Positions 3,959-54,425 of a stretch of DNA of 54,425 bases are shown here, piece after piece. How positions within the stretch are numbered: position 1 is the stretch's first letter; every line of letters starts with the position of its first letter. The DNA comes from Sulfurospirillum sp. (GTDB lineage: Bacteria > Campylobacterota > Campylobacteria > Campylobacterales > Sulfurospirillaceae): assembly GCA_045047115.1 (NCBI GenBank), contig JASFYR010000038.1:1-54425 (forward strand), in the 5' to 3' direction. A program made the translations under genes and the position numbers. A model generated the notes under the pieces. It saw only the letters and a list, made by a program, of their open reading frames with translations. It did no database searches and was not told the origin of the DNA.

Positions 3959-3980
3959 TTTCTACCCTATTTCTACCCCA
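3959..3980. repeat. 11-bp tandem repeat, candidate integrase arm-type sites
   Basis: TTTCTACCCTA TTTCTACCCCA immediately upstream of the integrase start. Confidence 0.5.
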
Positions 3981-4190: not shown

Positions 4191-4197
4191 CCGTTTT

Positions 4198-5237: not shown

Positions 5238-5243
5238 GGTAAT

Positions 5244-8042: not shown

Positions 8043-8057
8043 AACACCCTCCTTTTG

Positions 8058-9122: not shown

Positions 9123-9189
9123 ATACTACTTTCATAGATAATTTAAAAGAAATATTCTATCTAATTAAATATTATATACCAATAAAAAA

Positions 9190-10404: not shown

Positions 10405-10512
10405 ATTTTTTCCTTAAAAAATTTTTCTAATTATAAAATATTTTGACTTAAAGAGCATAATTTAAACAAAAATATCTTCACAAAGACTCTTTTTTACTGT
10501 ATTATTCATACT

Positions 10513-14840: not shown

Positions 14841-14844
14841 AGAG

Positions 14845-17042: not shown

Positions 17043-17115
17043 ATTTTATCCTTGTTTATATATTATAATTGTATCTAGTTTTCTTTTAGGTTTTGTTTAC
17101 AGTTAATCATAATTA

Positions 17116-17273
17116 TGATATACTAGAGCAATTTCAGCGTATCTTCGATCGACGACTGACTTCGTTTCTGTAATCAATTGATAACTTAACAATCTTATTT
17201 TTATAGCTTTGATCGAGAAAGTTTTTACTTTTCGAAAGCTATAAGTACCTTTGGTACTCACACAAGGCAAACA
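17116..17273 (+). promoter_or_regulatory. Extended -10 promoter and structured leader of the DEAD-box helicase
   Basis: TGATATACT at 17116-17124. Hairpins at 17201-17244 and 17244-17258 precede the RBS. Confidence 0.5.
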
Positions 17274-18485: not shown

Positions 18486-18585
18486 TAGTTTTAGAGATTT
18501 TCCTCTCGCTTTATTAGTTCTTATGCAAAGATTAAGCGGAGGGGGTAGCATATATTTGATATTTTCTTAAAGGTGGTATATTGGA

Positions 18586-35872: not shown

Positions 35873-37465
35873 ATGAGAAAACTACTCATGACAGCTTTGT
35901 TGTTCGCAACAACTTTAATGTATGCTGCACCAAAGTATGGTGGCGTATTGGTTTTTGGAAGAAGTGGGGATTCAGTCGCAATTGATCCTGCGCATGTTAC
36001 AGATGGAGAAAGCTTCTACGCTTCAACACAGGTATATAATACCCTGGTTCAATTTAAAAATGGAACAACTATTATGGAACCGGGACTTGCAACATCCTGG
36101 GATGTTTCAAAAGATGGCCTGGAGTATGTGTTTCATTTAAGAAAAGGAGTATATTTTCACCCTACAAAATACTATAAAAAAAGAAATGAATTCACAGCAG
36201 ACGATGTTCTTTTCTCAATCAAAAGACAGTTTGACAAAAGCAACCCTTACAACAAAATAGGCGGTTCTTTCAAATATTGGGGCGCCATGGACATGGACAA
36301 AATCGTAAAAGATGTTATCAAAGTTGACAAATATACTGTAAAGATTACTCTCAAGAAGCCGGAAGCTCCATTTTTATCAAATATGGCTATGGACTTTGCT
36401 TCTATACTCTCAAAAACTTATGCTATGGATTTATTAAAAGAGGGCAAAGCAGACAGACTTGCTAGATACCCTGTTGGAACCGGTCCTTTTGTTTTGGTTA
36501 AGTGGATTAAAGATGACAAGATGATATTTACCGCAAATGAGAACTACTGGGATGGTAAGCCTTATATCAAAAAGCTTATCTTAAAAGTCATCACCAACTC
36601 TTCAGTTAGAGCAGCTGAATTGAAAGTCGGCTCTATCCATGTTATGGATTTCCCAAATCCTGAAGAGATTGCAGGACTTGAAGCAAATCCTGACATAAAA
36701 CTTGTAAAACAAGAGGGGTTAAATGTAGGCTATCTTGCACTTGACCAAGTAAAATTTGCTCCATTTAGAGATGTAAGAGTAAGAAGAGCTATAAACTACG
36801 CTATCAACAAAGAGGCTATAGTAAAAGCTATCTATGCTGGTTTTGGTAAGCCTGCATACTCTCCGATACCTCCTACAATGTGGAGTTATAATCCAAACAT
36901 CAAAAAATTCAAGTACAATCCTGAAAAAGCCAAGCAACTTCTAAAAGAGGCTGGATATCCAAAGCTATCGTTTGAGCTTTGGGCAATGCCAGTGGCTCGT
37001 CCATATATGCCAAACGCAAGAAAAGTGGCTGAAGCTATGCAAGCAGACTTGGCAAAAGTAGGGGTTACAACAAAAATCGTAAGTTATGACTGGGGTACCT
37101 ATCTTGACAAAGGAAGACACTTTGAAGATGACTCTTGTCTTCTAGGCTGGACAGGTGACAATGGCGATCCTGATAACTTCTTAAATGTTCTTTTGACTTC
37201 AAACGCTGCAAAAGTTCCTGCTGCAAACAGAGCAGGCTGGAAAAATCCGGAATTTGACGCACTAATCGCAAAAGCAAAAACTACAACTGACATGAAAGAG
37301 AGAACTAAACTCTACATGAAAGCTCAAGAGATTTTTGCAGATCAGGTTCCTTGGGTAACAATAGCCAACTCTTTGGTTGTTGAGCCTATCAGAAAAAGTG
37401 TTATGAACTTCAAACTTGACCCTATGGGCAAGAGAAGATTCAATAAAGTTTGGTTTGACAAATAG
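35873..37465 (+). CDS. dppA: Dipeptide ABC transporter substrate-binding protein
   Basis: Signal peptide, PGLATSW, PVGTGPF, AMPVARPYMPN and GWTGDNGDPDNF. Confidence 0.93.
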   Translation: MRKLLMTALLFATTLMYAAPKYGGVLVFGRSGDSVAIDPAHVTDGESFYASTQVYNTLVQFKNGTTIMEPGLATSWDVSKDGLEYVFHLRKGVYFHPTKYYKKRNEFTADDVLFSIKRQFDKSNPYNKIGGSFKYWGAMDMDKIVKDVIKVDKYTVKITLKKPEAPFLSNMAMDFASILSKTYAMDLLKEGKADRLARYPVGTGPFVLVKWIKDDKMIFTANENYWDGKPYIKKLILKVITNSSVRAAELKVGSIHVMDFPNPEEIAGLEANPDIKLVKQEGLNVGYLALDQVKFAPFRDVRVRRAINYAINKEAIVKAIYAGFGKPAYSPIPPTMWSYNPNIKKFKYNPEKAKQLLKEAGYPKLSFELWAMPVARPYMPNARKVAEAMQADLAKVGVTTKIVSYDWGTYLDKGRHFEDDSCLLGWTGDNGDPDNFLNVLLTSNAAKVPAANRAGWKNPEFDALIAKAKTTTDMKERTKLYMKAQEIFADQVPWVTIANSLVVEPIRKSVMNFKLDPMGKRRFNKVWFDK

Positions 37466-37474
37466 AACCTCTAC

Positions 37475-37503
37475 ACGTAAAGAGAGTGCCACTCTCTTTA
37501 CGT
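37475..37503 (+). terminator. Stem-loop after dppA (stabiliser or attenuator)
   Basis: ACGTAAAGAGAGTG-C-CACTCTCTTTACGT perfect dyad. No U-tract follows. Confidence 0.55.
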
Positions 37504-37517
37504 CACTGCAATTTTCA

Positions 37518-37563
37518 CTGAACTTACGCACTGTTTATAACTATAATCCGTGCGTAAGTTCAG
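37518..37563. repeat. 14-bp inverted repeat element (micro-MITE-like)
   Basis: CTGAACTTACGCAC-N18-GTGCGTAAGTTCAG. Confidence 0.6.
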
Positions 37564-37586
37564 ATACTAAATATTAAGGAGAATTT

Positions 37587-38591
37587 TTGTTTTCTTACAT
37601 TGTAAAGAGATTGCTCTGGACAATTCCCACACTCTTTGGCGTTACCTTACTCGTTTTTTCAATGGTTCACTTAACACCCGGCGATCCAGCCGCTGCCATA
37701 CTCGGCGATAAAGCAAACAAGCAGTCTATCGCTGATTTGCGAGCTCAAATGGGGCTTGATAAGCCTCTATATATGCAGTATTTTATCTATATAAAAAATC
37801 TCTCACACGGAGATTTTGGAAAATCTGCAAACAGCAACGAAGAGGTGCTAACCGAATTTAAAGACAGATTTCCAGCTACGGTTGAACTCTCTATGGTTGC
37901 GATGTTTTTTGCTGTTTTTTTAGGTATAGGTGCAGGAATCATTTCTGCCGTCAAACGATACTCAATATTTGACTACGGGAGCATGTTTGGAGCTCTTGCG
38001 GGGGTGTCGATGCCCGTCTTTTGGCTTGGGCTTGTGCTTATATACTTTTTCTCCGTACGGCTCGGATGGCTACCGGTTTCCGGACGACTTGGATATGAGT
38101 TTGATATAGACAATATAACAGGACTCTATCTGGTTGATTCGATTTTAACGGACAATATACCTGCTTTTTGGGATGCCTTAAAACATCTCATACTTCCTGC
38201 TATTGCACTTGGAACTATCCCCATGGCGATAATCGCAAGAATGACAAGAAGCAGTATGATAGAGGTGATGAAAGAGGAGTATATAAAAACCGCACGAGCA
38301 AAAGGGTGCAGTAGATTTCAAGTCATATTTATCCATGCCCTAAGAAATGCTTTGATGCCTGTTGTCACTATAATCGGTCTGATGTTGGGCAGTCTTTTTG
38401 CAGGTGCAATTCTAACTGAAACTACATTTTCATGGCCGGGAATCGGAAAGTGGCTGGTAAATGCAGTCTATCAGAGAGATTTTCCGGTTATCCAGTCAAC
38501 TACACTTATAATCGCAATCATCTTCATAATAGTAAACTTTATTGTTGATCTGTTATATGCTTTTATAAATCCTAAAATAAGGCTCAGCTAA
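37587..38591 (+). CDS. dppB: Dipeptide ABC transporter permease
   Basis: PGDPA, RFPATVEL, YIKTARAKG and HALRNA. Confidence 0.93.
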   Translation: MFSYIVKRLLWTIPTLFGVTLLVFSMVHLTPGDPAAAILGDKANKQSIADLRAQMGLDKPLYMQYFIYIKNLSHGDFGKSANSNEEVLTEFKDRFPATVELSMVAMFFAVFLGIGAGIISAVKRYSIFDYGSMFGALAGVSMPVFWLGLVLIYFFSVRLGWLPVSGRLGYEFDIDNITGLYLVDSILTDNIPAFWDALKHLILPAIALGTIPMAIIARMTRSSMIEVMKEEYIKTARAKGCSRFQVIFIHALRNALMPVVTIIGLMLGSLFAGAILTETTFSWPGIGKWLVNAVYQRDFPVIQSTTLIIAIIFIIVNFIVDLLYAFINPKIRLS

Positions 38592-39451
38592 TGGAAAATT
38601 TTCTTGAATTTATAAAACAGTATAAAAGAAATAAAGCGGCAGTCATAGGATTTATAGTGGTTGTTATGCTTTTGTTGACTGCTCTGTTTGCACCTTTCGT
38701 AGCACCATATTCGCCTGATATTCAAAACCTGGCAGATAGACTAATTCCGCCTATGTGGGATGCAAAAGGCGTGAGTAGCCACATCTTAGGAACTGACGAT
38801 TTCGGAAGAGATCTCTTTTCCAGGATAATTTTTGGCTCTAGAATATCCTTGATGGTAGGAGCTATCTCAGTTGGAGTTTCACTCTCTTTTGGTTTAATAA
38901 TGGGTATAGTTGCAGCATATTTTGGTGGAAAAACAGATCTTTTTATCATGCGAATTGTTGATATTATGCTCTCCATACCCGCCATTTTACTTGCCATTGT
39001 AATCGTATCTATACTGGGACCCAGTCTCTTTAGCGCAATGACGGCTATAGGAATAGTCGGAATTCCTACTTATGCAAGAATTGTAAGGGCTTCTGTTTTA
39101 GCAGAAAGAGAAAAAGAGTATGTGATAGCAAGTCGGATAAACGGCTCGTCAAACACAAGATTAATGTTTGCCGTGATATTACCAAACTGTGCGAGTCCTA
39201 TCATAGTGCAGGCTACCATGGGATTTGCTTCTGCTGTTTTAGAAGCTGCCGGACTTAGCTTTTTAGGTCTTGGCGCCCAACCTCCAACTCCTGAATGGGG
39301 CGCTATGCTTAGTGATTCACTAGAATTTATAACAACTGCATCCTGGATGATTTTCTATCCCGGTCTTGCTATATTTTTGACTGTTCTTAGTTTTAATCTT
39401 ATGGGCGATGGACTTATGGATGTACTGGATCCAAAGTTAAAGGATAAGTGA
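38591..39451 (+). CDS. dppC: Dipeptide ABC transporter permease
   Basis: LGTDDFGRD and [16 protein letters not shown]. Confidence 0.93.
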
Positions 39452-40317
39452 TGAAAAATCTACTCGAAGTAAAAAATTTAAAGACATTTTTCTACTCTGA
39501 TACTGGAGTAAACAAAGCAGTAAATGATGTGAGTTTTGAGATACCAAAAGGAAAGACAGTATGTATAGTAGGTGAAAGCGGTAGCGGAAAAAGTATAACA
39601 TCTCTATCTATACTAAGGCTGATAGACCATCCAGGCGAAATAGAAGAAGGGGAAGTCCTGCTGGACGGAACAGACCTCCTGAAACTCAGCGATGCAGAAA
39701 TGAGAAAAGTCAGAGGTCGTGAAATTTCCATGATATTTCAAGAGCCCATGACATCTTTAAATCCATCCTATACAGTTGGATATCAGATAGATGAAGCACT
39801 TAGACTCCATCAAAAACATCTAAATAGAAAACAGAGATTTGAAAAAGTTGTCGAATCTCTTGATTTGGTAGGCATTCCTGACCCTAGAGAAAAATACAGA
39901 GAGTATCCTTTCAAACTAAGTGGCGGGCAGAGACAAAGAGTGATGATTGCAATCGCTATGGCCTGTGAGCCAAAGCTACTCATAGCAGATGAACCTACAA
40001 CAGCACTTGATGTAACTATCCAAGCTCAGGTGTTAGATCTTATGAATAATTTGCAAAAAAAGAAAGGCACATCCATACTTTTTATAACCCATGACTTGGG
40101 AGTAGTCTATCAAATAGCTGATGAAGTGGTAGTTATGTATAAGGGGCATATAGTAGAAAAAGCGAGTGCAAAAGAGCTTTTTCATGACCCGAGGCATCCA
40201 TACACCAAAGCACTTCTTCATTCGATTCCGGTGCCAGGAATTACTCCTAGAAAATCAAAACTTGATACTGTGGATGAGAATGTTGACTACCTCTCTTTTC
40301 CAAAGGAGATAAGATGA
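39448..40317 (+). CDS. dppD: Dipeptide ABC transporter ATPase
   Basis: [26 protein letters not shown] and ADEPTTALD. Confidence 0.93.
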
Positions 40318-41105
40318 GTAAAGTGATATACGAGATAAAAGATTTGAAAAAATATTATGAGATAAATCTTGGACTCTTCAAAAAACCAAAAATAATAAAA
40401 GCACTCAATGGTGTCTCTTTTGATGTCAAAAAAGGTGAAGTTTTAAGCATAGTCGGTGAAAGTGGCTGTGGAAAATCGACTACTGCAAAACTTATCCTAA
40501 AGATAGAAGAACCGACAGGTGGTAAGATTCTTTTTAATGGTGAAGATATAACCAAACTAGAGCACCATGAGTTAAGTGAGTACAGAAAAAAGGTCCAAAT
40601 CATCTTTCAAGACCCCTACTCCTCTTTAAATCCAAGATGGAAAGTCGGAACCATCATCGGTGAGCCACTGAAACTAAATACCGATATGAGTGATAAAGAG
40701 ATAAAAGAGAGAGTTTTATACCTGATGGATAAAGTCGGTATGCACCCTGACTGGTACGAGAGATACCCTCACCAATTTTCAGGTGGCCAAAGACAGAGGA
40801 TAGGGATAGCCAGAGCATTGGCTCTAAATCCGGAGATTATAGTCTGCGATGAGCCTGTAAGTGCACTTGATGTCTCTATACAGGCTCAAGTTTTGAACCT
40901 GCTTTTGGATTTACAAGAGGAGTTTAACTTAACATATATATTTATTTCTCATGATTTAAGTGTTGTTGAGCATATTTCAGATAGAATTGTAGTTATGTAC
41001 TTTGGAGATATAGTGGAGCTAAAAAGTGTAGATGAACTCTTTAGCAACCCTGAAGCTGACTATACAAAAAAGCTTCTTAGCGCAATTCCGACGATAAAGG
41101 ATTAA
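40314..41105 (+). CDS. dppF: Dipeptide ABC transporter ATPase
   Basis: [26 protein letters not shown] and DEPVSALD. Confidence 0.93.
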
Positions 41106-41112
41106 AAACATA

Positions 41113-42045
41113 ATGGAAGAGACACTAGAAGAGAAAAAGATACTTTCATATCTCTTGGACTACAGAGAGTGGGGGATATTTTTAAAAAGATTTATACTGA
41201 TTATTGTATTGGCAATCATCGCATTTGCGCTTTGGTTTTTTCCCATAAGCCTTATAGTTGCACCTTTTTACAGTATAACAACAGACAAAGTTCCGACCAT
41301 AAAGGTTTATCCAAAACTAGTCGGAGAAACAACAACAGATGCCCTAAAGAGTGGTTTGCAAAATTTGTTAAACGAGGGACTGGTTACAAACTTTGTGGGT
41401 GTGAGAACTTGGATAGACAACAAGTACTACCAGCAAGTCGGTGAGATAGAGATGTATAGAATCGGATTGTATACACTTGAAAACAACCTGGCAAGAAACC
41501 GAGGAACAGGCGGAGCAAACGAGCATATAGTCCAGGCAAGGTCAGATGTATATGCCGATTTTAGAATCCCAATATTTACCAGCTACAGCACAAGAGTCAA
41601 AGAAGCGATAGCAAATATAGATATATATCTGAAACAGCTAAAAGAGGACAAAAACAAAGATATGGCAAAAAAGAGAGCTGTCTTTATAGTCAACTCCGAT
41701 AACCTCGCAGTTGCGCTTGACAGACTTAAACAGCAACTTCAAACAAATCTGATGTTAAAAACTACCTTTAGCACCCAAGACGATAAGTTTTATCGCATCA
41801 AAGGTAATTTGATAGCCATGTACTATATCTTAAAAGGTATAGAGTATGATTTTAAAAACAAGATGATAGATAAAACCTCTTATGAAGAGAATTTTATACC
41901 TATGATGAATCTGCTCAAACAAGCCATAGCTCAAAACCATATCGTAGTTTTGGAATCACTTGGACATCTCTCAAAACTTGTCAAAGATGCCAGCCTGATT
42001 TCACAAAAGTTAGCAGAATTAAGAGATAAATTAAGGAATGGATAA
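41113..42045 (+). CDS. Membrane-anchored DUF2333-like protein
   Basis: Single N-terminal TM. WIDN...QVG, NSDNL..ALD and DDKFYRIKG resemble DUF2333 motifs. Confidence 0.6.
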   Translation: MEETLEEKKILSYLLDYREWGIFLKRFILIIVLAIIAFALWFFPISLIVAPFYSITTDKVPTIKVYPKLVGETTTDALKSGLQNLLNEGLVTNFVGVRTWIDNKYYQQVGEIEMYRIGLYTLENNLARNRGTGGANEHIVQARSDVYADFRIPIFTSYSTRVKEAIANIDIYLKQLKEDKNKDMAKKRAVFIVNSDNLAVALDRLKQQLQTNLMLKTTFSTQDDKFYRIKGNLIAMYYILKGIEYDFKNKMIDKTSYEENFIPMMNLLKQAIAQNHIVVLESLGHLSKLVKDASLISQKLAELRDKLRNG

Positions 42046-42053
42046 TGGATGAG

Positions 42054-42299
42054 ATGAATATAATTATAGCATACTGTGTAGTTTGAAACTATTTGCCAAG
42101 AGCTTCCCGTGCGGAAGAAGAGATAAAAGAGGCATTTAGTGACGCTAAAGTTACACTGGTCCCAGGCGAAAGAGGCGCTTTTGAAGTGACCCTGAACGGA
42201 AAATTGATTTTTTCAAAACTGTTTAAAGTAGGTACTTTCATAGAGAGATTTCCAGATCCGGGTGAGCTTGTAAAGTTGATAAAAAAAGAGGGCTATTAA
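42054..42299 (+). CDS. SelT/SelW/SelH (Rdx) family selenoprotein
   Basis: MNIIIAYCVV-U-NYLPRASRAEEEI...GAFEV...LIFSK...RFP. In-frame TGA at 42084-42086 sits in a CxxU motif. Confidence 0.9.
42103..42117 (+). promoter_or_regulatory. Candidate bacterial SECIS hairpin
   Basis: CTTCC-CGTGC-GGAAG starts 16 nt after the UGA, with GU near the start of the loop. Confidence 0.65.
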
Positions 42300-42308
42300 T
42301 TAGCCCTC

Positions 42309-43579
42309 ATGAGTGATAAAAAACTTCTCAAAACCGCTTTTTTAAACTTTTAGAAGAGATCTCGCCACAAAAACTGGTAGAATCTGGATGTAGCTTTGAT
42401 AATGATATACTCAAAATTCAAAACCGCTTATATGATTTGAAAAAATATAACAATATATATCTTTTCGGCTCCGGTAAAGCAGTCTTACCAATGGCAGAAA
42501 CTATGCAAAAAATCTTGAAAGAGAGGATTAAAAAGAGTTTCCTGGTAGGAGCTTACAAACAAAATATCAATCTAAAAAACACAACCTACATGCAGAGCTC
42601 CCATCCGTTGCCTACTCAAAAAAGTATAGATTTTACTAAAAAATTGATACTTGAGTTAGACAAACTAGGTAAAAATGATTTTTTCATATATCTTCTCTCA
42701 GGTGGAACTTCTGCGCTTTTAGAGCTTCCTGAAGCATGTATAAGCTTGGAAGATATACAAAAAACGACAGATATAATGCTTAAAAATGCCCTGCCGATAG
42801 AGGATATAAACTGCATAAGAAAACATATCTCCAGTATCAAGGGTGGAAAACTGGGTAAACACATAAAAGCAAATGGGGTTGTACTTGTATTAAGCGATGT
42901 TTTAGATAATAACCTCCAATCCATTGGCTCTGCACCACTCTATTTTGACAGCACTACATTTAATGATGCCCTGTCTTGTCTCAATAGCTATGGTATTTTT
43001 GATGCCATCCCTAAAAATGTACAAAAATTTATCACTGAGGGCATAGAACTCAAGCAAAAAGAGACTCTAAAAAATGAGCACAAAAACATAAAACACTTTA
43101 TACTTGGTTCCAATAAAATAGTGCTTCAAAAAGCAAAAGAGATACTGGAAAAGCAAATAAAAACTACCATAATAGACAAACCTGTAAAAGATGAAGTAGA
43201 TATAGAGACTCAAAGATTGTTGGCTTTCACAAAAGCAAACAGCGGCGAGAGAGCCTGCTTTATATTTGGTGCGGAGTGCACCGTAAAAGCAAACAAAAAT
43301 GGAATAGGAGGCAGAAATCAACACCTTGGACTTAATTTTTTAGACAAATTTAGATCCAAAGCAACCCTGCTTTTTGCCGCAACAGACGGTGTTGATGGAA
43401 ATAGCGATGCCGCAGGAGTGGTGATAGAAACTAACAGCAAATCCAAGGATAATTCAGATGCAATTAGAGCATATCTGAGGGATTTTAATTCAAATCTATA
43501 TTTCCAAAAAAACAAATCTCTCGTAGTGACAGGACCTACTCATAATAATCTTTTAGATATAATTATGATGATATTATAA
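42309..43579 (+). pseudogene. Glycerate 2-kinase (GckA/TtuD/MOFRL family), frameshifted near the 5' end
   Basis: GSGKA, SHPLP, LSGGTSAL, IKGGKL, GGRNQ, TDGVDGNS and TGPTHNN. The ATG 42309 frame ends at TAG after 14 codons; the body frame is open from ~42317. One missing base (e.g. in T6 at 42338-42343) would join them. May be a sequencing error. Confidence 0.8.
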
Positions 43580-43591
43580 AAGGAATTTTAA

Positions 43592-44419
43592 ATGATAAAA
43601 AAATGTCTATTTCCCGCAGCAGGATATGGCACAAGATTTTTACCTGCTACAAAAGCTATGCCAAAAGAGATGCTTCCTATACTCACAAAACCTCTTATTC
43701 AGTATGGAGTAGAAGAGGCCATGGAAGCCGGATGCAACATCATGGCTATCATAACAGGACGTGGAAAGAGAGCCATAACAGACCATTTTGATATATCGTA
43801 TGAGCTTGAACATCAGATAAAAGGCACTTCAAAAGAATCTCTATTGACAGATATAAGAGAACTTATAGAGACATGCACTTTTACATATACCAGACAAAAC
43901 AAAATGAACGGTCTAGGAGATGCGATATATAAGGGCAAAGCACTTGTCGGTGAAAAGTTCCCTTTTGCTGTAGTGTTGGCTGATGATCTTTGTATAAACC
44001 CTGATGGCGATGGCATATTGACACAAATGGCACAACTATACGAAAAATACAAATGTTGTATCGTAGCTACGATGGAAGTCCCAAAAAACGACACCGACAA
44101 GTATGGAATCATAGAAGGAAAAGAGCTAGAAGACGGTGTTTTTATGGTATCAAATATGATAGAAAAACCTGACATCAAAAGTGCCCCAAGCAACTTGGCG
44201 GTCATAGGTAGATACATACTGACTCCGGATATATTTCCACTTATAAAAGCTACAAAACCGGGCAAGAACGGTGAAATTCAGATAACAGACGCTCTTTGCA
44301 AAATGGCCCAGAAAGGTATGGTTGTAGCTTATAAATTCAAAGGCAAAAGATTTGATTGTGGAAGCATAGATGGTTTTGTAAAGGCTACAAATTATTTTTA
44401 TAGCTTAAAGGCCGATTAG
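43592..44419 (+). CDS. galU: UTP--glucose-1-phosphate uridylyltransferase
   Basis: PAAGYGTRFLPATKAMPKEMLP, IEKP and GEIQITDA. Confidence 0.97.
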   Translation: MIKKCLFPAAGYGTRFLPATKAMPKEMLPILTKPLIQYGVEEAMEAGCNIMAIITGRGKRAITDHFDISYELEHQIKGTSKESLLTDIRELIETCTFTYTRQNKMNGLGDAIYKGKALVGEKFPFAVVLADDLCINPDGDGILTQMAQLYEKYKCCIVATMEVPKNDTDKYGIIEGKELEDGVFMVSNMIEKPDIKSAPSNLAVIGRYILTPDIFPLIKATKPGKNGEIQITDALCKMAQKGMVVAYKFKGKRFDCGSIDGFVKATNYFYSLKAD

Positions 44420-44447: not shown

Positions 44448-46411
44448 TTATTCTTTGGCTGGAGCAATTGAAAATCTGATAATATATCTGTATTTTTTAT
44501 CATCAACAATCTCTATAGAGCCGTCTAGTTGATTCATAATCAAAGAATCAACTAGTTTTAAGCCTAGCGTCTTATGGCCCTTTTGCATCTGTTTGCACCC
44601 TTTTCCGCTATCCCCAATTTTAAGTATATAGTTGTTGTATTCTTTGGAAATATAAATGAAAATTTCACCTCCTGTTTTATCAAAGGCATATTTAAACGAA
44701 TTTGAAATAAGCTCATTGACCACCAACCCGACATATACAGCCTGGACTAGAGGCATTGTGGCATATATATTTTGAGAAATCTTGATACTTTTATCGCCAA
44801 ATCCACTTTGCATCTCTTCACACAACTCACCAATGTATTGGCTCATATCTACATTTGAGATATGTTCGCTATCACAAAGAATCACATGCGTTTTTGCAAT
44901 GGATTTTATGCGATTGCTTAATTTTTCAAACTCCTCCATACTGTGCTTGTTATTGATATTGTGTTGTTGCAACCTTATAATAGAGAGTATAAGCTGTAAA
45001 TTATTTTTAACTCTGTGATGAAGTTCTCTGAAAAGAGTGTTTTTCTCCTCTAGCGCCATTTTTAAATCCTTGGTTTTTTGTTCCACTTCCTCCTCGATCA
45101 TTTTTTGTCTCTCTTGCATTTGAGTTATAAGTTTTGCACTCAAAACCCCTCTTTCTTTAGCCTCACTCACATAATGTAAAAATGTCAAAACAAGATACAA
45201 GACAAAACTTGAAATAAGAGGAAAAATGATATTTATAATTAAACCATAGCTAATAAACAGGTAAAACGCCATATACAAAAACCCAAAAATCAACAAAAGA
45301 GAAGAAAATGCATTTTTAAACGGACCTGTTAGAGAAAAAAGTAATACAAAGATCAGCACAATACAAATCATTACTGCATCCACCGCCTCTATCCAGCTCG
45401 GTCTAATTAAGAAATTTTGATTTAGAATATTGTCTATTGCAGATGCTAAAATCTCAACTTTGGCAAATGTACTGTCTATCGGAGTTGCTCTCATATGCTC
45501 ATTTGCACTGGTTTTGCCAATCAAAACTATCTTGTCTTTTATGTAATTTTCATCAAAATTGTTACTGTAAATATCCTGTGCATTTATATATTTATATGTT
45601 TTTGATTTGCCTTTAAAATTTAACATCAATCTGCCAAATCTATCGGTTGCTATAACAAAATCTCCTAATCTTATATCATCTATCCCGACTTTTGAGTAGT
45701 CTATGGTTATCTGTTTGATTTTCTTAATATATCTTACAATCTCCAAAACAAGTGAAGAGTATATGGAATCTTTATATCTAATCAAAAGCGGAAGACTTCT
45801 CACTACTCCGTCTTCGTCTGAAATTATATTTATAAAGCCACTTGAAAAGGCACTCTCTTGCAATACCTTTATATTTGAGACTATGCCTTGGGCTCTGGGT
45901 AAAAATTCAAAGCCTTGATAGTTTTTTTGGATCATTATACGGTTTAAATTTGGAAATTCACCTCTTTTTATGTTTGAATTAAAACTAAACATATAGCTTA
46001 AAACCACGGGTGCCTGTTTGAGACTTTTTGCAAGCAACTCATCATAATCCACCATCAAATCACCATTAAAGTTCATTTTCTGCAAAACTCTTCTTGGAGA
46101 GCTGTTGTCAAACTCTGAAAACACCATATCTATACCTATCACTTTTGCTTTAGCATTTTTCAGGTTGTCTATCACTTTTGCCATCATCTCTCTTGAAAAA
46201 GAGCCAAGACTTTCAAGGGTTTTGTCATCAATATCAACTATGACTATGTCTTTATCACTCTCTTTAGCACCTCTTGTATCAAAAACAGATCTGTAAACTT
46301 ACTGTTTATTTTCTCAAAAAAGGGTATATTTTGCATATACAAAAAAGATGAAAAGCCCCCTATAAAAAGTGTTATTAAAATCTCCAAGATTATTATCTGT
46401 TTTTTATTCAA
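44448..46411 (-). CDS. CHASE2 sensor histidine kinase (HisKA_2 type), frameshifted near the 5' end
   Basis: IVIVDIDD...SRE, DEDGVVR and DKIVLIG (CHASE2); 3 TM; RELHHRVKNNLQ and NELISNSFKYAF. The TTG 46411 frame encodes the first TM and joins if the A5 at 46281-46285 were A6. Confidence 0.85.
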
Positions 46412-46415
46412 AACT

Positions 46416-48356
46416 CTACTTTATCTTAATATTTAGCACTTTACTCTCAGATATATTTCCACTTTTATCATAGACTTTTAGCATATAAAAATAGCTTCCT
46501 TTTTTAGAAATTACCCTGTCCCTAAAGCTTTTACCTATAGCAAAACTTGAAATTTTATAGTATCTAATATCATTTCCAAAACTCTTATAAACCTCAAAAC
46601 CACTATAGTCTTTATCTCTACAAATGAAGGAGAGTTTTATACTCTTTTTGGATAAAACTGCCTTAAAATTCTCTATGACTGGCGGTGTTGTATCTACTGT
46701 TTTTATAGATATCATACTCTTTTTAGCTGATTCGTTTCCACTTCTATCCACAGCTGTAACCAGATATAAAACTTTGCCTTTTTTAGGTGGATTTAAATCC
46801 TCAAAACTATTTATTTTGATTGGTTTTTTATTGACTTTTTGAAACTTTTTACCAAATCTTACATATACATTATAGTGATCCAAATCATACACCAAAACTC
46901 TATCCCACTTCAGATAAACTCTGTTCGGATAGACTATAAACTTAAGTATCTTCGGCTCTCTGGGTGGTGTAACATCAGGTAGTTTTGTTTTTACTATATT
47001 TGAAAATCTGCTTTCGTTGAAGCTTTTATCTACGGCAACTACAGCATAATAGTATGGATATCTACTTAAACTCTTCTCTTTTTTATGTATAAATTTGGTA
47101 TTTTTTATAGCCTTTTTTGTTATCAAACTCCAATCTTTTGCCTCTTTATCCATAGACATATAGACTCTGTATCCTAACAAATCATCACTTTTTACACCCT
47201 TCCACTTAAGCTTCACCAAGCCTGGTTCAACAGAAAACTGTAAAGTTTTTAGAGTTGGAGGAGGAGTCACATCTCTGGCATATGCCAACATCTTCATTGA
47301 TGGTTTTGATTCTCCTCTTAAATCCAAAGAGCTTACATAATAGTAGTAAGTTTGGTTGGATTTAAAATTTTTATCCTGATATATTTGTTTTTTTATCGGT
47401 TTTTTATTTAACTTCTTATAGCCACCTTTATAGTTCATGCTTCTATAAACATTATAACCTATCACTTTCGGAACTTTTCTCCATCGAAGAGTTATAACTT
47501 TATCGCTGTTTTTTATAAAAATATGTTGTACAATTTTTGGCTTTTGACTTACTAGTCTTTTTGCCTTTATGCTATACGAAGGCTTGCCTTCCTTGCCAAA
47601 AAAATCAACCTTTTTTACATAGTAGCTGGCAGATTGATTCTTTTTCAAACTCTTGTCCCTATAAAATGACTTTGATTTTTTTGCAAAAGAAGGAGTCACA
47701 TAAACAGGAGTCGAATTTAGCCTCTTAAACTTCTTTTCACCTTGTAATTTTCTATATATATTGTAAAATCCCGACTCTTTCCCACTATCCCATTTGATAC
47801 CCACTCCCCATTCATACCCTTTTGCTTGCATCCAAAATATACCACTTAAATATTTTTTATTTGCTGTATTGGCGTTCACACTCGCTTCTGATATCTTCTT
47901 GTCGTTTTTAAACAAAACCACTCTGTATATATATTTTTTGGACTTTTTTACTCCAGTATCTATAAAAAATTGTCCCAAATTTTTAGCAAAATTATTATCT
48001 TCAAGCAGTTTTAAAACTCTAAAACCGCCGGCTACCTGTTCAGCTTTGGCTACGGCAATCTCATCATCTATATTTTTTACATCTTTGAAAGGATAGACTA
48101 AAAAGATATAGTCTTTGCTGTATTTTGCTTTTTTCAAATCCTTATACGGAACTGCTTTTACAGTGGCTAAAAGCTTCTCTTTTTCTCCATCAGTTTTTCT
48201 ATATATTTTATACACATTTTTACTGGAATACTTTTTTGGTATCCACTTGAGAAGAATTTTATTATCTTGCACATTTGCATACAATCCCAAATCTCCGCTA
48301 CTTTTTGCATAAACGGTACCTAACAATATCAATATAATTAAAAATACTCTTTTCAA
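46416..48356 (-). CDS. Secreted Lys-rich protein with about 6 fibronectin type III domains
   Basis: Signal peptide MKRVFLIILILLGTVYA. Repeated LxW...YxxYR...D...YYY.V.AVD.S.NES units with DVTPP linkers. Confidence 0.85.
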   Translation of the reverse strand: MKRVFLIILILLGTVYAKSSGDLGLYANVQDNKILLKWIPKKYSSKNVYKIYRKTDGEKEKLLATVKAVPYKDLKKAKYSKDYIFLVYPFKDVKNIDDEIAVAKAEQVAGGFRVLKLLEDNNFAKNLGQFFIDTGVKKSKKYIYRVVLFKNDKKISEASVNANTANKKYLSGIFWMQAKGYEWGVGIKWDSGKESGFYNIYRKLQGEKKFKRLNSTPVYVTPSFAKKSKSFYRDKSLKKNQSASYYVKKVDFFGKEGKPSYSIKAKRLVSQKPKIVQHIFIKNSDKVITLRWRKVPKVIGYNVYRSMNYKGGYKKLNKKPIKKQIYQDKNFKSNQTYYYYVSSLDLRGESKPSMKMLAYARDVTPPPTLKTLQFSVEPGLVKLKWKGVKSDDLLGYRVYMSMDKEAKDWSLITKKAIKNTKFIHKKEKSLSRYPYYYAVVAVDKSFNESRFSNIVKTKLPDVTPPREPKILKFIVYPNRVYLKWDRVLVYDLDHYNVYVRFGKKFQKVNKKPIKINSFEDLNPPKKGKVLYLVTAVDRSGNESAKKSMISIKTVDTTPPVIENFKAVLSKKSIKLSFICRDKDYSGFEVYKSFGNDIRYYKISSFAIGKSFRDRVISKKGSYFYMLKVYDKSGNISESKVLNIKIK

Positions 48357-51300
48357 AATGAACCTCCAAGATTAAATTCTGCTCCAACTCCTACACCTTC
48401 ACGAGCTCCACCCATCATGTTGCCGGAATTGTATCCGCCTCCGACATTTCCCATACCGGAGCCATTAGGTGCAAACCCGCCTCCTGCTCCAGGGCTTTCC
48501 CCCGTCACACCGATCAGTTCACCGGCAGAAGCTGCTTCTGTGGCACTGTTTCTTGCCCTATCTTGCGCCTCTTCAACACCCGCTGTTGAGTAGTCTTCTC
48601 CATTTGAGATATTATCTATCGGTATAGTACCTAAAAGCTCATCTGTGGCTCCAACCCTATACTCTATCTTTGCATTTAAGAGATTTATACCGGCTTTTCT
48701 TAGATGCACTATCTTTATACCGTCATCTGTTGAGATTTTTTGTTCACTTCCGTCTTCAAGCCTCCATATAGTCTTAACAATTTTCTTAATACCATAGTAT
48801 GCTCCTATCGCCCCCAATCCGCTATCGGTATCTAGCTTGAACTGTTCCGGATGATCAATGTTTTTACTGATGACCATACTTGGTTCCACCAAATCCTTCA
48901 TGGCATCAAATCGCCTTACGCTCTCCTTATCACTGCTGTTGTATTTCACTCCAAAAGAAGAAAAATATACAATTTGATTTGTGCTGTGATCAGTAACTAT
49001 GATATTGTAAGTATTGTTTGTAAAATATGAGTACAGACTATCCTGACTTGAAGCTTTAAACTCACCAACATCAACATTACTCAATGATGCAGAAGAGATA
49101 TAAGGCGGTATAGCAACTTGGTTGCTGCCTGGGCTACTCTCTCCATCAACCGTATAGTTTTTAAATGGATTTAGATATTCTCCCTCACTGTTTTTAAAAG
49201 TCTCTTTAATCACGCCTGTTTGATTATTCATGCAGAAATGATAAACTCTAAGTGGCGATACAGGTTTAAATACCGACTTAGGTACACCATCACTGGCATC
49301 ATAGAAAAATTGACCGTTTATTGGTTCATTTTTGGCATTTGTAACTTTAACTATGTAATTTCTTATAAGATAGTTACTTGTACCTAAATATTTTACCACC
49401 TCATCGTAATACAAGACAACACTCTCTCCTTCAATTACATCTTGTTGTAAATTTGCCGGATAGACCCTGTCTATGACATCTGAAAACTTCAGTTTATTTT
49501 CACTGCTTACAGTAAACTCTTTGGCAAACTCCTCTCTTTTTACCTCAACCAAACCCTCGCCTGTTATCTCTCCATGATCTCTCAAATATGCTTCAGGCTC
49601 TCCCAAGGCGTCAAACATATCTTCTTGTCCTGCAAAAGTGGCTTTTTCCCTTTGATAATAGTATGAGAGAGTTACATAACCACTCAGCTTATATCTGTGT
49701 CCTGGAATTAAAGCCTGAAATTTCGGTATAACTTTTATCTCGTTTTGGCTAATACGAATCTTATCTATACTTATGATATGGTTATTTGTCAAGTCTCTCA
49801 AATATACACTTTTTACATTACTTATATAATATAGTTTTTCAAAAGTCTCAAAACTACCCTGCATTGAAGAGGCATTTGTTATGTTGGCTCTTGTTTTCAT
49901 ATCCATATCTCCTAGATCAAAATGGCTTCCGTCAGAGTTAAATGTTGTAACTATCTTCATCTTCGGCATAAGACTTACATTATCACCCTCATAAGGTTCT
50001 ATATGATTTACAAGATTTGGTATAGTATCTCCTGATGACGAACTTGGACGATACGGAAAGTATGTCGTAAACGAAGCACTTCCATATATAGGTATATCAA
50101 CATAGGCCCTGACTCTTGCATAGGTTGGATTAGGAGCTCTAAATTTTACGCCCAATCCAGCTCCCAAAGTTCCACTAAACAGATCTCCGTAACCGGCTGT
50201 CATACTAAGGCTTGCCTCGATACTAAAATCCATAAAAAACGGATTATACTGCATGAGAGCATCACCTCTTGCATCTGCCTTCAGCTCAAGGTAAGGATCC
50301 GGACCCCATAAATCTATAGAGAGTCTTTTTTCAAAATGGTAATTGGCACCAAATGCAAGCCTTCTTGTATCAATCATAAAGTAACCTTGAGGTCCCATAT
50401 CAAATATACTGATTTTTACATTACCCAACGGCTCCTCTACATTAAACCCTTCGGCGTGAGGATCTGTGCCTATAAAGACATGTTTTTCAGTTGAGGTAAA
50501 CATAATATCCGCTCCACCATCAACACCTATTCCCATATATTTTATATTTGCACTGGCAGTTATATGTAAAGATGCCGGGGACATGCCTAAAGTAATAGCT
50601 CCATGGATCTTTTTATCAGCAGGAGAGGAGCTTTTAGGGCTCAATATATATGTATCTCCAACCATAACAATCTGTCCGGCACTGTCCACATTTAAATCTA
50701 TCTGCCCATGCCATGTAAATCCCAAATCCGGTGTACCCATCAAAGAGGATAAAATTATGATTATATTTTTTTGTCCGCTTGGAACAAAATCATAGGTGAT
50801 ATTTTGTCCGCTTCCACTTTTACTTATACTCATATTGTAGGCGGCTCCACCTCCTAATTCATATATGGTAACCGGACCCAGAGGAATACCGCTTGGCCCC
50901 AAGCTTCCCTGTGCTTTTGCCATCCAGTAGAGTCCGTTTTTTTGTCCTAATCTAAATGCCCCTTTGACACTAAACATGCTAGCGATAGATAGCTGAAGTG
51001 GACTAGGTGTTCCAAATCCATTGCCGTACACTGGGTCGTTATTGTACCATGCGATTTCACCTGCAAATGTGACAGCAGGGTTATTTACCATAACTTTTAT
51101 GCTATCCACATCTATACTGCCATCACTATACAGTTTCAGTCCTGCTCCGGCTTCTGCAATTTTTAGAGACAGAGTTCCTTTTGTGCTAATATAAAACTTG
51201 TTGTTTAAAAATCCCAATCCAAGCTTTTCTATACTCAATCCGAATCCTCCAAGAGATGCGCTTGCTCCGCTCACATCAAAATCTACCCCGGCACCATCTA

Positions 51301-54300
51301 TACTTACACCATTTGATGAAATTTTCAGATTTTGAAACTCTACACTTGAAACTGCGTTAAAGAGGCTATTTTGAGGTTTTACATTGCCAGAGAGCTTTAT
51401 CCAAAAATTATTAAAACTCGGATTTGCTTCTACTGTATCGAATGTAAATGTTGCAAAATTTGAGATACTAAGGTCTCTCAAAGCAGATGAACTTATACCC
51501 AAATCCTCTATTCCGTTACTGCTTACTGCCGCTGCTAGTTTTAATTCAAACGGCGTAGTCGAACCCAAAAAGTTCTCTTTGTTGTATTGAAGCCCAAAAT
51601 TGCCAGATATGGCTCCACTCGAAAATGTCGTATCAAACTTGGTTATTCTAAGCCCAGAAATACCAGGAAAATTCATACTTGAAGCCAGAGCAATACTTCC
51701 ACTTACTCCATATCTGTTTATCTTAAAGTTATCAAGCAGAATATTTAAGCCATCTATATCCTTATATCCAAAATTACCTCCTACGCTTACATAAGGAGTG
51801 GTTGCACCAAAATCAAAACCACCATTTAAGCCTTTAAACTCAAATTTGCCTATGTTTACAGTCCTATCAAAAGTCCAGTGAATATTTGATTGCACATAGC
51901 TAAGACCTGCTTGTACCGTACCATCAAATATCTCACTCAAATCGACTTTTCCATCAAATGCAGTAAGCTTAAACGGTATATTCCAATTTGAATTAATACT
52001 GACTCCAACTTGATTTAGTATCAACACAACTTTATTATTTAAAATCACAAATCTTTTATTGTTTAAAGCTGCGAGAACATTCCCGCTAAAACCTGTATTG
52101 CTTATCTCCAAGTTGCTAAAATCTAGTGTCTGTATGCCTACTTTTGTGAAGATATCTGCTTTTACACCTATTTTTCCTGCGAGTTTAACCTTGTATGTGC
52201 CATCACTCTGCTTCTCCACACTTCCACTTATGCCTGAAAATACTATAGTTGTATCATCTTTTTTATAAGTCAAAACCTGAGAAGTACTAAATGTATATAC
52301 TCCTTCATGCGAATAATAGATATCGACAGGCGCCACATCTCCATCAAAGAGTTTTCCAAAGTAAAGCTTGCCATTTGCACTATCAACTCCACTTCCACCA
52401 CTTCCTACATGAGCATTTAAATTTGAGATTTCTACTCTGACATCTTTATCACGAGTTCCAAGATCAAGTATCGTAAACTCTGCTCCTGCACCCTGTATAA
52501 CAAGATTCCAATCAATTCCATCTTTGCTTATCTTTGCATCTGTAAGTTCCACGCTACCTAAGCTTGCAAAGTCACTTAAATATTGACTAAAGTTTGCATT
52601 TGCATGAAAGTATATGACAGGGTTACTAAGACTTCCAAGATCAATCTCCCCGCCGATAGCACTTACAACCACTTTTGCACTTCCATTTTTTATCAAATCA
52701 TGATTGCCACTGAGCGACCAACTGTATTTGCCTCTCTTTAGCGCAGTAGCTAGATTATGTCCGTACTCCTGTATCTCACTGGCAGTTGCGACAGCTTTTG
52801 TGAGGGCTATAACCTCTCCGTCAAGCAACTCTCCAAAATCCAAAGATGCACTCAAACTCTTTACACTCACATCAAAACCGTCTCTTGTTACTTTTATGCC
52901 CAGAGTCGGTGGATTTTGAGCATCAAACTTAACCTTTACTTTTTTGTCACTCCAAACCGTTATATCGTTTATATTTGCACTTATATCACCTCTAAAACCT
53001 CCTCTTGAAATACGAGCATTCCTCAAAGAAGCAGAACTTAAATCAAACCCCAAACTCTGCTCAAAAGCAACATTTGCATTTAAATTCAACACTGGACTCT
53101 TTAGAGATGCCAAATTTATACTTCCTGAGAGTTGGCTCAACTCTATACCATCAATAAGTTTCTTACTACCCCCTAATGACCAGGAATACAAATCATCTTT
53201 TAAGTTACTCAAGGTTACTTTGGCACCTTCGAGCACATCCCCAAAGTCTATCTTTGCTTTTACATTGCTTATGCCTATATTTAAGCCGCTTGAGCCTAAA
53301 TTTAAGTTAAATTTAGGTTTATATTTATCATCAAAAATCAACTTGACATTCTTATCTTTCCAGATATCTATGTCTTTTATATCAGCTTCTATACTGCCCT
53401 TAAAACCACTTTTTGAAATCATTGCATCTTGAAGAGTTGCAGATGTAAGATACCTAAAAACCGTACTGTAATTACTCATGTCTGCAGTAGCATTTAGGAT
53501 AATTTTAGGATTGCTCATATCTGAAAAATCTAAAGTTCCCATAAGTCCGCTTACAGCTATCTTGCTTCCAAACAGATTGCAAGAACCACTCAAACTCCAA
53601 TCATAAATACCACTGCTTGAGACTACTGCATTTTTTGCATCGGACACACTCTTCTTTGCCTCATTTACCGCATCTTTTACATCTTCTGCTACATCTGTTA
53701 TCCTGCCTATCGTTGCGATTGCTCCATCAAGTGCCGAACCAAAATATAGCTTTGCATTTAAGTCGCTAAAGCCAAGTTTGAGTCCTGATTTTTTAACACT
53801 TACATATAGAGTAGGAGCTTTTTCAAAATGAAGCTTCACACCCTTCTCTTGCCAAATCGGCAAATCACTCAAACTCACCTGTATATCTGCACTAAATCCA
53901 TTCTTACGGATTGTAGCATCTTTCAATACTGCCTCTTTTACATTTGAAAACAGACTTCCATAGCCACTCAAATCAACCTTGGAATTAAATACTATGACAG
54001 GAGATGATATATCTTTTAGGTCTATACTGCCTTTTATTCCTGAGAGCTTTATCTTTTCATTCACCAAGTTTTTTGTGCCATCTATATTCCACGAAAGCAG
54101 AGAGCTTGCATCTTTTTCTAATGTCTTCAACTCCACTCTTGCATCTTTGATAAGTGAGCCAAAATCTACGGATGCATCTATATTTTTGATACCAATTTTT
54201 GGGAGTGACGACAGAGAGTTGATCTCTATATTAAAGGTAGGTTTAACTTCATTGTTAAAAATCAGTCTGACATCTTTCCCTGCTCCACCACGATTCAACA

Positions 54301-54425
54301 CAACTACAGGGTCTATATCTGTTTGAGCGCTTATCTCGCCACTAAATCCGCCAGGGCTTATATCTGCACTCAGTGTTGCGTTTGTAAGTTTTTTTGCTAT
54401 CACATTATCATAATTGCTAAAATCC
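48353..54425 (-). CDS. Giant beta-rich repeat protein of unknown function (5' end outside window)
   Basis: Frame is open to the window edge (>2020 aa). Four 136-164-aa repeats, a beta-rich core, two Ig-like segments and a Gly-rich tail. Its stop overlaps the Fn3 gene start (TTGA). Confidence 0.85.
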   Translation of the reverse strand, partial: DFSNYDNVIAKKLTNATLSADISPGGFSGEISAQTDIDPVVVLNRGGAGKDVRLIFNNEVKPTFNIEINSLSSLPKIGIKNIDASVDFGSLIKDARVELKTLEKDASSLLSWNIDGTKNLVNEKIKLSGIKGSIDLKDISSPVIVFNSKVDLSGYGSLFSNVKEAVLKDATIRKNGFSADIQVSLSDLPIWQEKGVKLHFEKAPTLYVSVKKSGLKLGFSDLNAKLYFGSALDGAIATIGRITDVAEDVKDAVNEAKKSVSDAKNAVVSSSGIYDWSLSGSCNLFGSKIAVSGLMGTLDFSDMSNPKIILNATADMSNYSTVFRYLTSATLQDAMISKSGFKGSIEADIKDIDIWKDKNVKLIFDDKYKPKFNLNLGSSGLNIGISNVKAKIDFGDVLEGAKVTLSNLKDDLYSWSLGGSKKLIDGIELSQLSGSINLASLKSPVLNLNANVAFEQSLGFDLSSASLRNARISRGGFRGDISANINDITVWSDKKVKVKFDAQNPPTLGIKVTRDGFDVSVKSLSASLDFGELLDGEVIALTKAVATASEIQEYGHNLATALKRGKYSWSLSGNHDLIKNGSAKVVVSAIGGEIDLGSLSNPVIYFHANANFSQYLSDFASLGSVELTDAKISKDGIDWNLVIQGAGAEFTILDLGTRDKDVRVEISNLNAHVGSGGSGVDSANGKLYFGKLFDGDVAPVDIYYSHEGVYTFSTSQVLTYKKDDTTIVFSGISGSVEKQSDGTYKVKLAGKIGVKADIFTKVGIQTLDFSNLEISNTGFSGNVLAALNNKRFVILNNKVVLILNQVGVSINSNWNIPFKLTAFDGKVDLSEIFDGTVQAGLSYVQSNIHWTFDRTVNIGKFEFKGLNGGFDFGATTPYVSVGGNFGYKDIDGLNILLDNFKINRYGVSGSIALASSMNFPGISGLRITKFDTTFSSGAISGNFGLQYNKENFLGSTTPFELKLAAAVSSNGIEDLGISSSALRDLSISNFATFTFDTVEANPSFNNFWIKLSGNVKPQNSLFNAVSSVEFQNLKISSNGVSIDGAGVDFDVSGASASLGGFGLSIEKLGLGFLNNKFYISTKGTLSLKIAEAGAGLKLYSDGSIDVDSIKVMVNNPAVTFAGEIAWYNNDPVYGNGFGTPSPLQLSIASMFSVKGAFRLGQKNGLYWMAKAQGSLGPSGIPLGPVTIYELGGGAAYNMSISKSGSGQNITYDFVPSGQKNIIIILSSLMGTPDLGFTWHGQIDLNVDSAGQIVMVGDTYILSPKSSSPADKKIHGAITLGMSPASLHITASANIKYMGIGVDGGADIMFTSTEKHVFIGTDPHAEGFNVEEPLGNVKISIFDMGPQGYFMIDTRRLAFGANYHFEKRLSIDLWGPDPYLELKADARGDALMQYNPFFMDFSIEASLSMTAGYGDLFSGTLGAGLGVKFRAPNPTYARVRAYVDIPIYGSASFTTYFPYRPSSSSGDTIPNLVNHIEPYEGDNVSLMPKMKIVTTFNSDGSHFDLGDMDMKTRANITNASSMQGSFETFEKLYYISNVKSVYLRDLTNNHIISIDKIRISQNEIKVIPKFQALIPGHRYKLSGYVTLSYYYQREKATFAGQEDMFDALGEPEAYLRDHGEITGEGLVEVKREEFAKEFTVSSENKLKFSDVIDRVYPANLQQDVIEGESVVLYYDEVVKYLGTSNYLIRNYIVKVTNAKNEPINGQFFYDASDGVPKSVFKPVSPLRVYHFCMNNQTGVIKETFKNSEGEYLNPFKNYTVDGESSPGSNQVAIPPYISSASLSNVDVGEFKASSQDSLYSYFTNNTYNIIVTDHSTNQIVYFSSFGVKYNSSDKESVRRFDAMKDLVEPSMVISKNIDHPEQFKLDTDSGLGAIGAYYGIKKIVKTIWRLEDGSEQKISTDDGIKIVHLRKAGINLLNAKIEYRVGATDELLGTIPIDNISNGEDYSTAGVEEAQDRARNSATEAASAGELIGVTGESPGAGGGFAPNGSGMGNVGGGYNSGNMMGGAREGVGVGAEFNLGGSF

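Follow-up and report, generated by a model that had tools for sequence, protein, structure and literature searches.

The right-hand end of a 54,425-nucleotide contig of Sulfurospirillum sp. (JASFYR010000038.1; this whole stretch is referred to as the window) encodes a giant protein rich in beta-type sequence, a basic protein of six fibronectin type III (Fn3)-like modules and a CHASE2 sensor kinase. An earlier, sequence-only reading had taken these genes for part of an undescribed surface or secretion system with further components beyond the window. Such components were indeed found: a second contig of the same genome, C4, carries the 5' part of the giant gene together with genes for a predicted outer-membrane barrel and for an NTF2-like/CARDB protein, and these, with the giant and the Fn3 protein, appear to form a conserved four-gene set. 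The features of the locus are as follows.

48353-54424, minus strand: giant gene, last 2023 residues; its open reading frame (ORF) is open at the window end
Contig C4, 8044-10320, plus strand: 5' part of the giant gene, from a search of the genome itself
51905-54424, minus strand: six copies, the first partial, of an amphipathic beta-strand repeat of about 130 residues (iterated repeat hidden Markov model, HMM, and alignment)
50015-51301, minus strand: conserved beta-rich core, residues 1042-1470, common to TANFOR-like giants (HMM matches)
48548-50014, minus strand: C-terminal region, with immunoglobulin-like (Ig-like) starts at residues 1471 and 1650 (motif positions)
48356-48547, minus strand: glycine-rich tail ending in a short hydrophobic strand (terminal strand pattern)
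46416-48356, minus strand: exported and strongly basic protein made up of six Fn3-like modules, of which the first is atypical; 646 residues
44448-46411, minus strand: CHASE2/HisKA_2 sensor kinase, frameshifted (Pfam CHASE2 7e-40, HisKA_2 2e-21)
46244-46411, minus strand: front frame of the kinase, 55 codons, with the first membrane helix
46281-46285, minus strand: run of five T at the kinase frameshift (sequence reading; four orthologues compared)
44448-46187, minus strand: main frame of the kinase, 579 codons

As the sequence-only reading had it, the three genes are co-oriented; they lie on the minus strand, and the giant stop and the Fn3 start share the TTGA at 48353-48356. The motifs that it quoted were all recovered, at residues 1129, 1166, 1175, 1187, 1471 and 1650 of the window part of the giant and at residue 34 of the Fn3 protein. 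The giant is rich in S, G, L, I and V, and as far as residue ~1600 the hydrophobic periodicity of most 100-residue windows is dominated by the beta type; its window part has an isoelectric point (pI) of 5.3 and two cysteines. The Fn3 protein is as basic and as modular as had been described (pI 9.99, six module starts, one cysteine); its PDB match is titin, with an E value of 1.7e-5, and its orthologues, present in 5 of 40 relatives searched, match Pfam fn3, a family to which the protein itself gives no match at E<=0.01.

The front piece of the giant on C4 comprises 759 residues, running off the contig end, and comparison of the two pieces with homologues gives a full length of about 2,780-2,930 residues. 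Against the closest homologue (P0004; 2932 residues, 77% identical) the C4 piece stops at residue 752 and the window piece begins at 903, leaving a gap of one repeat, and against a second homologue (P0006) the gap is zero. By the names of its closest homologues, the host belongs in Campylobacterota. The front piece reads, in order, as a signal-like start, a FecR domain (PF04773, E 5e-13), an Ig-like domain of ~100 residues that we call the handle and the first repeats; across the family the order is signal, optional FecR, handle, repeats of ~130 residues (9-11 copies in full-length Campylobacterota homologues), core, Ig-like domains and glycine-rich tail. The sole hydrophobic stretch lies at the very N-terminus, with no membrane helix afterwards, and is read as a probable cleavable signal because of its Ala motif. 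Within the core, residues 1379-1463 give a weak and marginal match to DUF6603 (Pfam E 1.4e-6; 27.7 bits against a cut-off of 27), a family for which we found no literature. The C-terminal region is variable, with 20-46% identity to 10 orthologues, and its counterparts in homologues give weak Big_5 matches. Neither the giant nor its handle has a significant match among PDB sequences. PHROGs yielded just two matches, one of a generic Fn3 kind to tail fibre J and one to a family without a name, over the FecR region; a phage-tail origin was dropped. None of the plasmids searched carries the giant core.

On C4 the order is 7TM-DISM kinase, response regulator, a 276-residue protein of NTF2-like and CARDB domains, the 524-residue barrel-like protein and the giant front. 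This module order is contiguous in a single-contig genome (G013) and also in loci L029 and L033, and in another genome of the genus (G009) the genes that flank the C4 module adjoin those that flank the window module. The 524-residue protein, with 25 amphipathic strands in a crude scan, a terminal Phe and no cysteine, is likely an outer-membrane barrel, although neither family libraries nor solved structures (Pfam, NCBIfam, PDB) give it a family name.

The sequence-only reading had named two findings that would tell against it, a full-length match of the giant to a characterised adhesin or S-layer family and a lack of linkage between the giant and Fn3 genes elsewhere. No such match was found in the family libraries, the PDB or PHROGs, and the linkage proved general. 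A scan of 185,579 GTDB species genomes returned 17 loci, in Campylobacterota and Deltaproteobacteria-type lineages; the Fn3 gene directly follows the giant in all 15 loci that reach past it (the other two end inside the giant), the barrel lies upstream in 14 of the 14 loci that extend so far (close by in 13, distant in L039), and the NTF2-like gene precedes the barrel in 12/12 own-type loci that reach it. The loci examined share no conserved small gene or immunity gene after the Fn3 gene. The module is rare and its distribution patchy: of 61 genomes of the family, 9 have a close barrel, as do 2 of the 401 sampled from the phylum. A quick tree groups a Desulfuromonadaceae barrel within those of Campylobacterota, which suggests transfer. 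Identities within giant-bearing loci fall into two blocks, barrel, handle and NTF2-like protein against core, tail and Fn3 protein; between L030 and L037, for example, identity is 80% for the barrel and 90% for the NTF2-like protein, against 32% for the core and 29% for the first Fn3 module.

Several of these loci have peculiarities of their own. In L034 a stand-alone handle protein of 334 residues precedes the giant (3397-4401) and an NTF2-like lipoprotein follows the Fn3 gene (14763-15209), and in L025 (genome G018, 1-5564) the giant gene occupies two frames in the assembly, close to unresolved bases. In the window, positions 35873-44419 hold oligopeptide ABC transporter, DUF2333, glycerate-kinase-like and sugar-nucleotidyltransferase genes; in G013 and L033, too, the module has the transporter and DUF2333 genes at its side.

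From this gene content we propose, at about even confidence, that the barrel serves as a dedicated port and anchor for the giant, whose handle would be held at the barrel, with the rod of repeats and its Fn3 partner standing out from the cell surface. Sec would take all four proteins across the inner membrane, as their N-terminal hydrophobic stretches and the lack of later membrane helices suggest, and the barrel, with its roughly 25 amphipathic strands and terminal Phe, would be received by the outer membrane. Gene context points to a docking step in which the barrel would bind the handle and the NTF2-like domain, the latter perhaps as a helper. The 9-11 repeats would then build the rod, at whose far end the acidic giant (pI 5.3) may bind the basic Fn3 protein (pI 10), the product being, perhaps, an adhesive or scaffolding structure. 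In one subclade, the joint gain and loss of genes set out below suggests that a periplasmic FecR domain ahead of the handle would inform the CHASE2 kinase of the state that the complex is in. Every step past gene content and homology is inferred.

The same long run of amphipathic beta repeats would also suit a periplasmic bridge, in which the giant, docked on the barrel, would span the two membranes as a beta-groove of the TamB/AsmA kind and move lipids or other hydrophobic cargo; TamB/AsmA-like bridges are reported to transfer lipids (PMC13507460, PMC13542527), and TamB too is a very long protein of amphipathic beta repeats encoded beside an outer-membrane barrel, TamA. A FecR-CHASE2 coupling requires a periplasmic part, and a hydrophobic terminal strand follows the flexible tail in 19 of 34 full-length giant homologues. 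We nevertheless consider this bridge unlikely. The giant shows no membrane helix after its probable signal peptide, its window part and orthologues give no match to the AsmA/TamB Pfam families, and the repeat matches neither the TamB that this genome separately encodes (probability 0.9%) nor any PDB sequence (best E 0.17), so that by sequence the giant would not belong among AsmA-like bridges. The barrel, moreover, is apparently not of the Omp85 family and is mostly found without a giant, and the distribution of the module is patchy, as noted.

The barrel without its giant was followed by running barrel and handle profiles on 401 genomes of the Desulfobacterota phylum, that of genome G423: the barrel was found in 27, the handle in 21 and both in 17. 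Apart from G423 itself, 26 genomes thus have the barrel, and 19 of them supplied the 20 barrel loci that we examined; a handle protein lies beside the barrel in 17, NTF2-like proteins only in 2 and a CARDB protein only in 1; none of the 20 holds the giant core or the Fn3 protein. The barrel thus travels with handle proteins even where there is no giant. The handle is fused to an NTF2-like domain in many of these loci, and L089 has six neighbours with this domain, which in four of the proteins closes a long chain. Handle-NTF2 cassettes occur also in the family of the window (G344, G837) and in its genus (G009), and a quick tree has the barrel clades tracking cargo type. Barrel, handle and NTF2-like domain would then be the constant core, and since barrel loci keep handle or NTF2-like proteins where the giant is missing, the giant body and Fn3 protein would be one cargo of a wider platform. 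Four loci (L083, L087, L089, L091) hold several proteins of 880-1,300 residues without a Pfam family and with an NTF2-like domain at the end, three of these loci having a TPR protein as well, and we regard the long NTF2-tagged proteins as a candidate cargo set. In L092, L093 and L095 the barrel is followed by two handle-NTF2 proteins and then by an extracytoplasmic function (ECF) sigma factor, a zinc-finger anti-sigma factor and a subtilase (checked against Pfam in L092). The G009 locus (L106, 4766-14173) has the flanking genes of the module, and amid them another cassette of this barrel family, comprising a barrel in two ORFs, one handle-NTF2 protein and two long NTF2-tagged proteins.

The kinase calls for a correction to the sequence-only reading. 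There is indeed a TTG start at 46411, which follows the Fn3 stop by 4 bp. Its frame runs for just 55 codons, however, and the CHASE2 kinase is read in a different one (579 residues from the ATG at 46187). As the frame changes at the five-T run, where four orthologues stay in one frame, the kinase is frameshifted in this assembly, through mutation, slippage or sequencing error. Nor is the kinase the system's own sensor in general: it is an accessory gene outside the conserved unit, and the earlier claim holds for the FecR-bearing subclade only. There a CHASE2 kinase follows 5 of the 6 loci whose downstream side is visible (the present one, L028, L029, G018 and G001; not L033), against none of 10 FecR-less loci (G013, L030, L031, L034, L036, L037, L038, L040, L041 and G010); one FecR-bearing locus (L103) and two FecR-less ones (L032, L042) were left out of these counts, their downstream side not being visible. 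Two natural deletions fit this distribution: G001 keeps barrel, FecR-handle and kinase and is missing the giant body and Fn3 protein, and G010, where the FecR domain has been lost by a clean in-frame deletion, has no kinase. As the genomes are kin, we treat the co-occurrence as a pattern and not as a statistic.

These observations could also be read with the receptor placed first, the barrel, FecR-handle and inner-membrane sensor being a trans-envelope relay to which the giant body and Fn3 protein were added as an antenna. G001 would be its minimal set, FecR-handle proteins adjoin the barrel in 7 of the 20 Desulfobacterota-phylum loci, 3 of the 20 have ECF-sigma/anti-sigma-like genes beside it, and on C4, as in G013, L030, L037 and L038, a 7TM-DISM kinase and a response regulator lie ahead of the module. 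There is precedent for a barrel-to-inner-membrane relay in Sinorhizobium, where the NsrA barrel acts with inner-membrane cyclases (PMC7529298) and a FecR-domain gene is reported as a target of the NsrA/CHASE2-cyclase pathway (PMC5498481). The arrangement here resembles FecA-FecR signalling and the NsrA relay (PMC5498481, PMC7529298, PMC13001267) in that FecR would stand between a barrel in the outer membrane and a CHASE2 sensor in the inner one. It differs in that the barrel matches neither the TonB-receptor families (Pfam, NCBIfam) nor a TPR family, that a giant passenger carries FecR as a fused domain, and that the output is a HisKA_2 kinase, its partner not being an ECF sigma factor. We think it quite unlikely that the module is primarily a receptor, because all 10 FecR-less loci lack a CHASE2 gene and yet keep the four core genes, because the G001 barrel nests among giant-bearing barrels in a quick tree, so that its minimal set looks derived, and because loci with several NTF2-tagged proteins of 1,000-1,300 residues resemble cargo sets rather than relays.

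The sequence-only reading had likened the giant and its Fn3 partner to TANFOR clusters of Bacteroidota, and this likeness stands in part. TANFOR proteins have been described as polymorphic toxins of Bacteroidetes with Fn3 neighbours, for which export via type IX secretion (T9SS) was proposed (Jana et al. 2020, PMC7073777); the text consulted there does not mention a barrel, which its supplements may list among the neighbours. Our search with the giant core found 78 relatives among 1.84 billion representatives, and a metagenome locus (L049) holds giant, Fn3 protein and barrel together. The core profile scores 66 bits against the L049 giant (shuffles <=2.1), and the two Fn3 proteins are colinear from end to end (24% identity over 695 residues, E 6e-31). 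The TANFOR domain itself, TIGR02542, was not matched in the C4 front piece, in P0004, anywhere in the genome or in the L049 giant, and since the latter is without it, its 'TANFOR-like' label rests on likeness to P0075. Matches to TIGR02542 below cut-off occur on P0053, P0075 and L047, and two distant core relatives, one from Flavobacteriales, bear such sub-cut-off TANFOR heads; it was with the Flavobacteriales protein that L049 was retrieved. A handle equivalent to the TANFOR head was considered and rejected (hhalign probability 0.2% against a TANFOR-like head). Kinship of the barrel to TANFOR-type barrels is weak: a single-sequence comparison gives a probability of 0.3% and a profile-profile hhalign 34% (E 4e-4, 312 columns), and the HMM matches are one-sided, above 10 bits for 18 of 91 sequences in one direction and for 0 of 119 in the other.

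This genome holds a second, distant system of the kind (L026, contig C9 of the same genome, G000, 7721-18730), with a 1977-residue giant of the same core (52.7 bits) and a 662-residue Fn3 protein on one strand, faced from the opposite strand by a 652-residue barrel and a 357-residue exported protein. The latter was tried as a TANFOR head and rejected (2.7 bits, shuffles up to 2.0). In G572 a barrel, a 358-residue protein and a giant stand in one row. The giant of G450 contains a match to the small protein's second half.

With TANFOR proteins, then, the module shares a giant protein with a Sec-like N-terminal hydrophobic stretch, a homologous beta-rich core, a colinear six-Fn3 partner encoded nearby and a weakly related barrel in the cluster. 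It differs in having no TANFOR head, toxin-tail match or immunity gene and a host outside Bacteroidota, and in its 9-11 long repeats, its other handle, its NTF2-like partner and its FecR-CHASE2 link. Were the giant the delivery body of a polymorphic toxin system of this sort, its toxin would have to be unrecognised at its end or encoded separately; TANFOR proteins are reported with toxin tails and sometimes with separate toxin genes (PMC7073777), and the distal half of the giant is variable and appears exchanged. We find this improbable, given that library searches match no toxin family in the giant, that the gene after it is the Fn3 gene in 15/15 loci and not an immunity gene, and that there is neither a conserved small gene behind the Fn3 gene nor a TANFOR head.

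In two-partner secretion (type Vb) a TpsB barrel of the Omp85 family, with POTRA domains, exports a TpsA passenger through recognition of its TPS domain. The present module would work most like this system, with a barrel gene next to that of a giant, beta-rich passenger whose N-terminal domain would serve for its recognition, and yet would seem not to be a member of it. The barrel has no Omp85/POTRA or ShlB match (65 members in NCBIfam, three orthologues in Pfam, PDB; a ShlB search of the genome gives one sub-cut-off match, located elsewhere), FecR is the only domain matched at the giant's N-terminus, where no TPS domain was found, and there are two additional conserved partners. MtrB-type porins form a barrel as a sheath around a multiheme c-type cytochrome partner, and the barrel here, of similar size, may likewise sheath a partner protein. 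It differs in having no sequence match to solved structures and no multiheme partner, there being two, one and no cysteines in the window part of the giant, the Fn3 protein and the barrel, respectively, and no cytochrome family in library searches of the module proteins. Type IX secretion offers a further likeness in the use of a small terminal domain as a tag recognised by a barrel (PMC10202324), with the difference that the candidate tag is here N-terminal and unrelated by sequence, with no SprA or T9SS tail match; Por_Secre_tail is unmatched on both giant and Fn3 protein, and TIGR04183, TIGR04189 and SprA have no match in the genome, the control genomes being silent too. That giant and Fn3 protein instead take a general exit already known (type II secretion here, type IX in Bacteroidota), with the barrel a neighbour or surface clamp, is highly improbable in our view: four secretin genes are present in the 2.1-Mb genome (contigs C19, C29, with two, and C32), T9SS-type tail proteins (motif recognised by eye) flank L049 and PorP/SprF barrels have been proposed to anchor type B cargo (PMC10202324), but T9SS is reported as restricted to Bacteroidota (PMC7073777), the genome searches for its tail and for SprA are negative within the limit just given, and the barrel-handle link holds across unrelated cargo sets. 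By sequence, the module would thus fall outside two-partner secretion, TANFOR toxins, T9SS cargo, FecA-type signalling and MtrCAB. We found no description of the four-gene module in the openly searchable literature, and the accessible part of PMC13209400 makes no mention of fibronectin, an adhesin, a secretion system or the outer membrane.

Elsewhere in the window, the left end (881-3957) is low in GC (~31%) and carries an AbiEii/AbiEi type IV toxin-antitoxin pair, an unassigned ORF of 196 residues and a gene resembling tyrosine integrases. Two short chemoreceptors that have CZB zinc-binding domains lie at 18823-19677 and 21816-22910, adjoining an HD-domain protein with a YgaP-like membrane domain.

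Port, anchor and platform can be joined in a single reading, to which, taken as a whole, we give rather less than even credence. The barrel family may define an undescribed class of outer-membrane export and anchoring, its passengers tagged by the Ig-like handle, the NTF2-like domain or both; it would serve cargo sets as different as a beta-repeat giant with an Fn3 rod, long helical proteins and FecR relays; it would span Campylobacterota and Desulfobacterota and reach the TANFOR clusters, there replacing the type IX hypothesis; and in the clade of the window the mounted giant would double as a surface sensor, wired through FecR to the CHASE2 kinase. Several points weigh against the proposal. 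Surface exposure of the giant is a prediction from gene content and sequence, and another exit route exists, given the four secretins. The two blocks of co-variation are predictable from DNA adjacency alone, the handle being encoded beside the barrel gene and the core beside the Fn3 gene, and all counts take in kin genomes and so are not independent. At E<=1e-5 no handle is matched in 10 of the 27 barrel genomes, and no barrel in 4 of the 21 handle genomes, many of both being fragmented. The NTF2-like HMM was iterated on the very loci that it counts (shuffled sequences scored up to 5.8 bits and the background of the genome itself up to 10.5), and the fold label itself comes from a sequence pattern and weak matches (SnoaL_2 at E 0.003 in 1 of 21; a de novo NTF2 protein in the PDB at E 0.24), with nothing significant among PDB sequences. 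L033, finally, bears FecR and has no kinase.

New routes across or into the outer membrane are rare, and for the TANFOR giants the export route has been a type IX hypothesis only, as far as the accessible text goes (PMC7073777). The same giant body and Fn3 partner are found here, always beside the barrel, in phyla for which no type IX system is reported, and the export route therefore becomes testable. The other cargo sets of the barrel suggest a general platform with two short candidate tags, and the natural deletions in G001 and G010 outline a putative relay from FecR to CHASE2, which bears on what the many unassigned CHASE2 sensors perceive.

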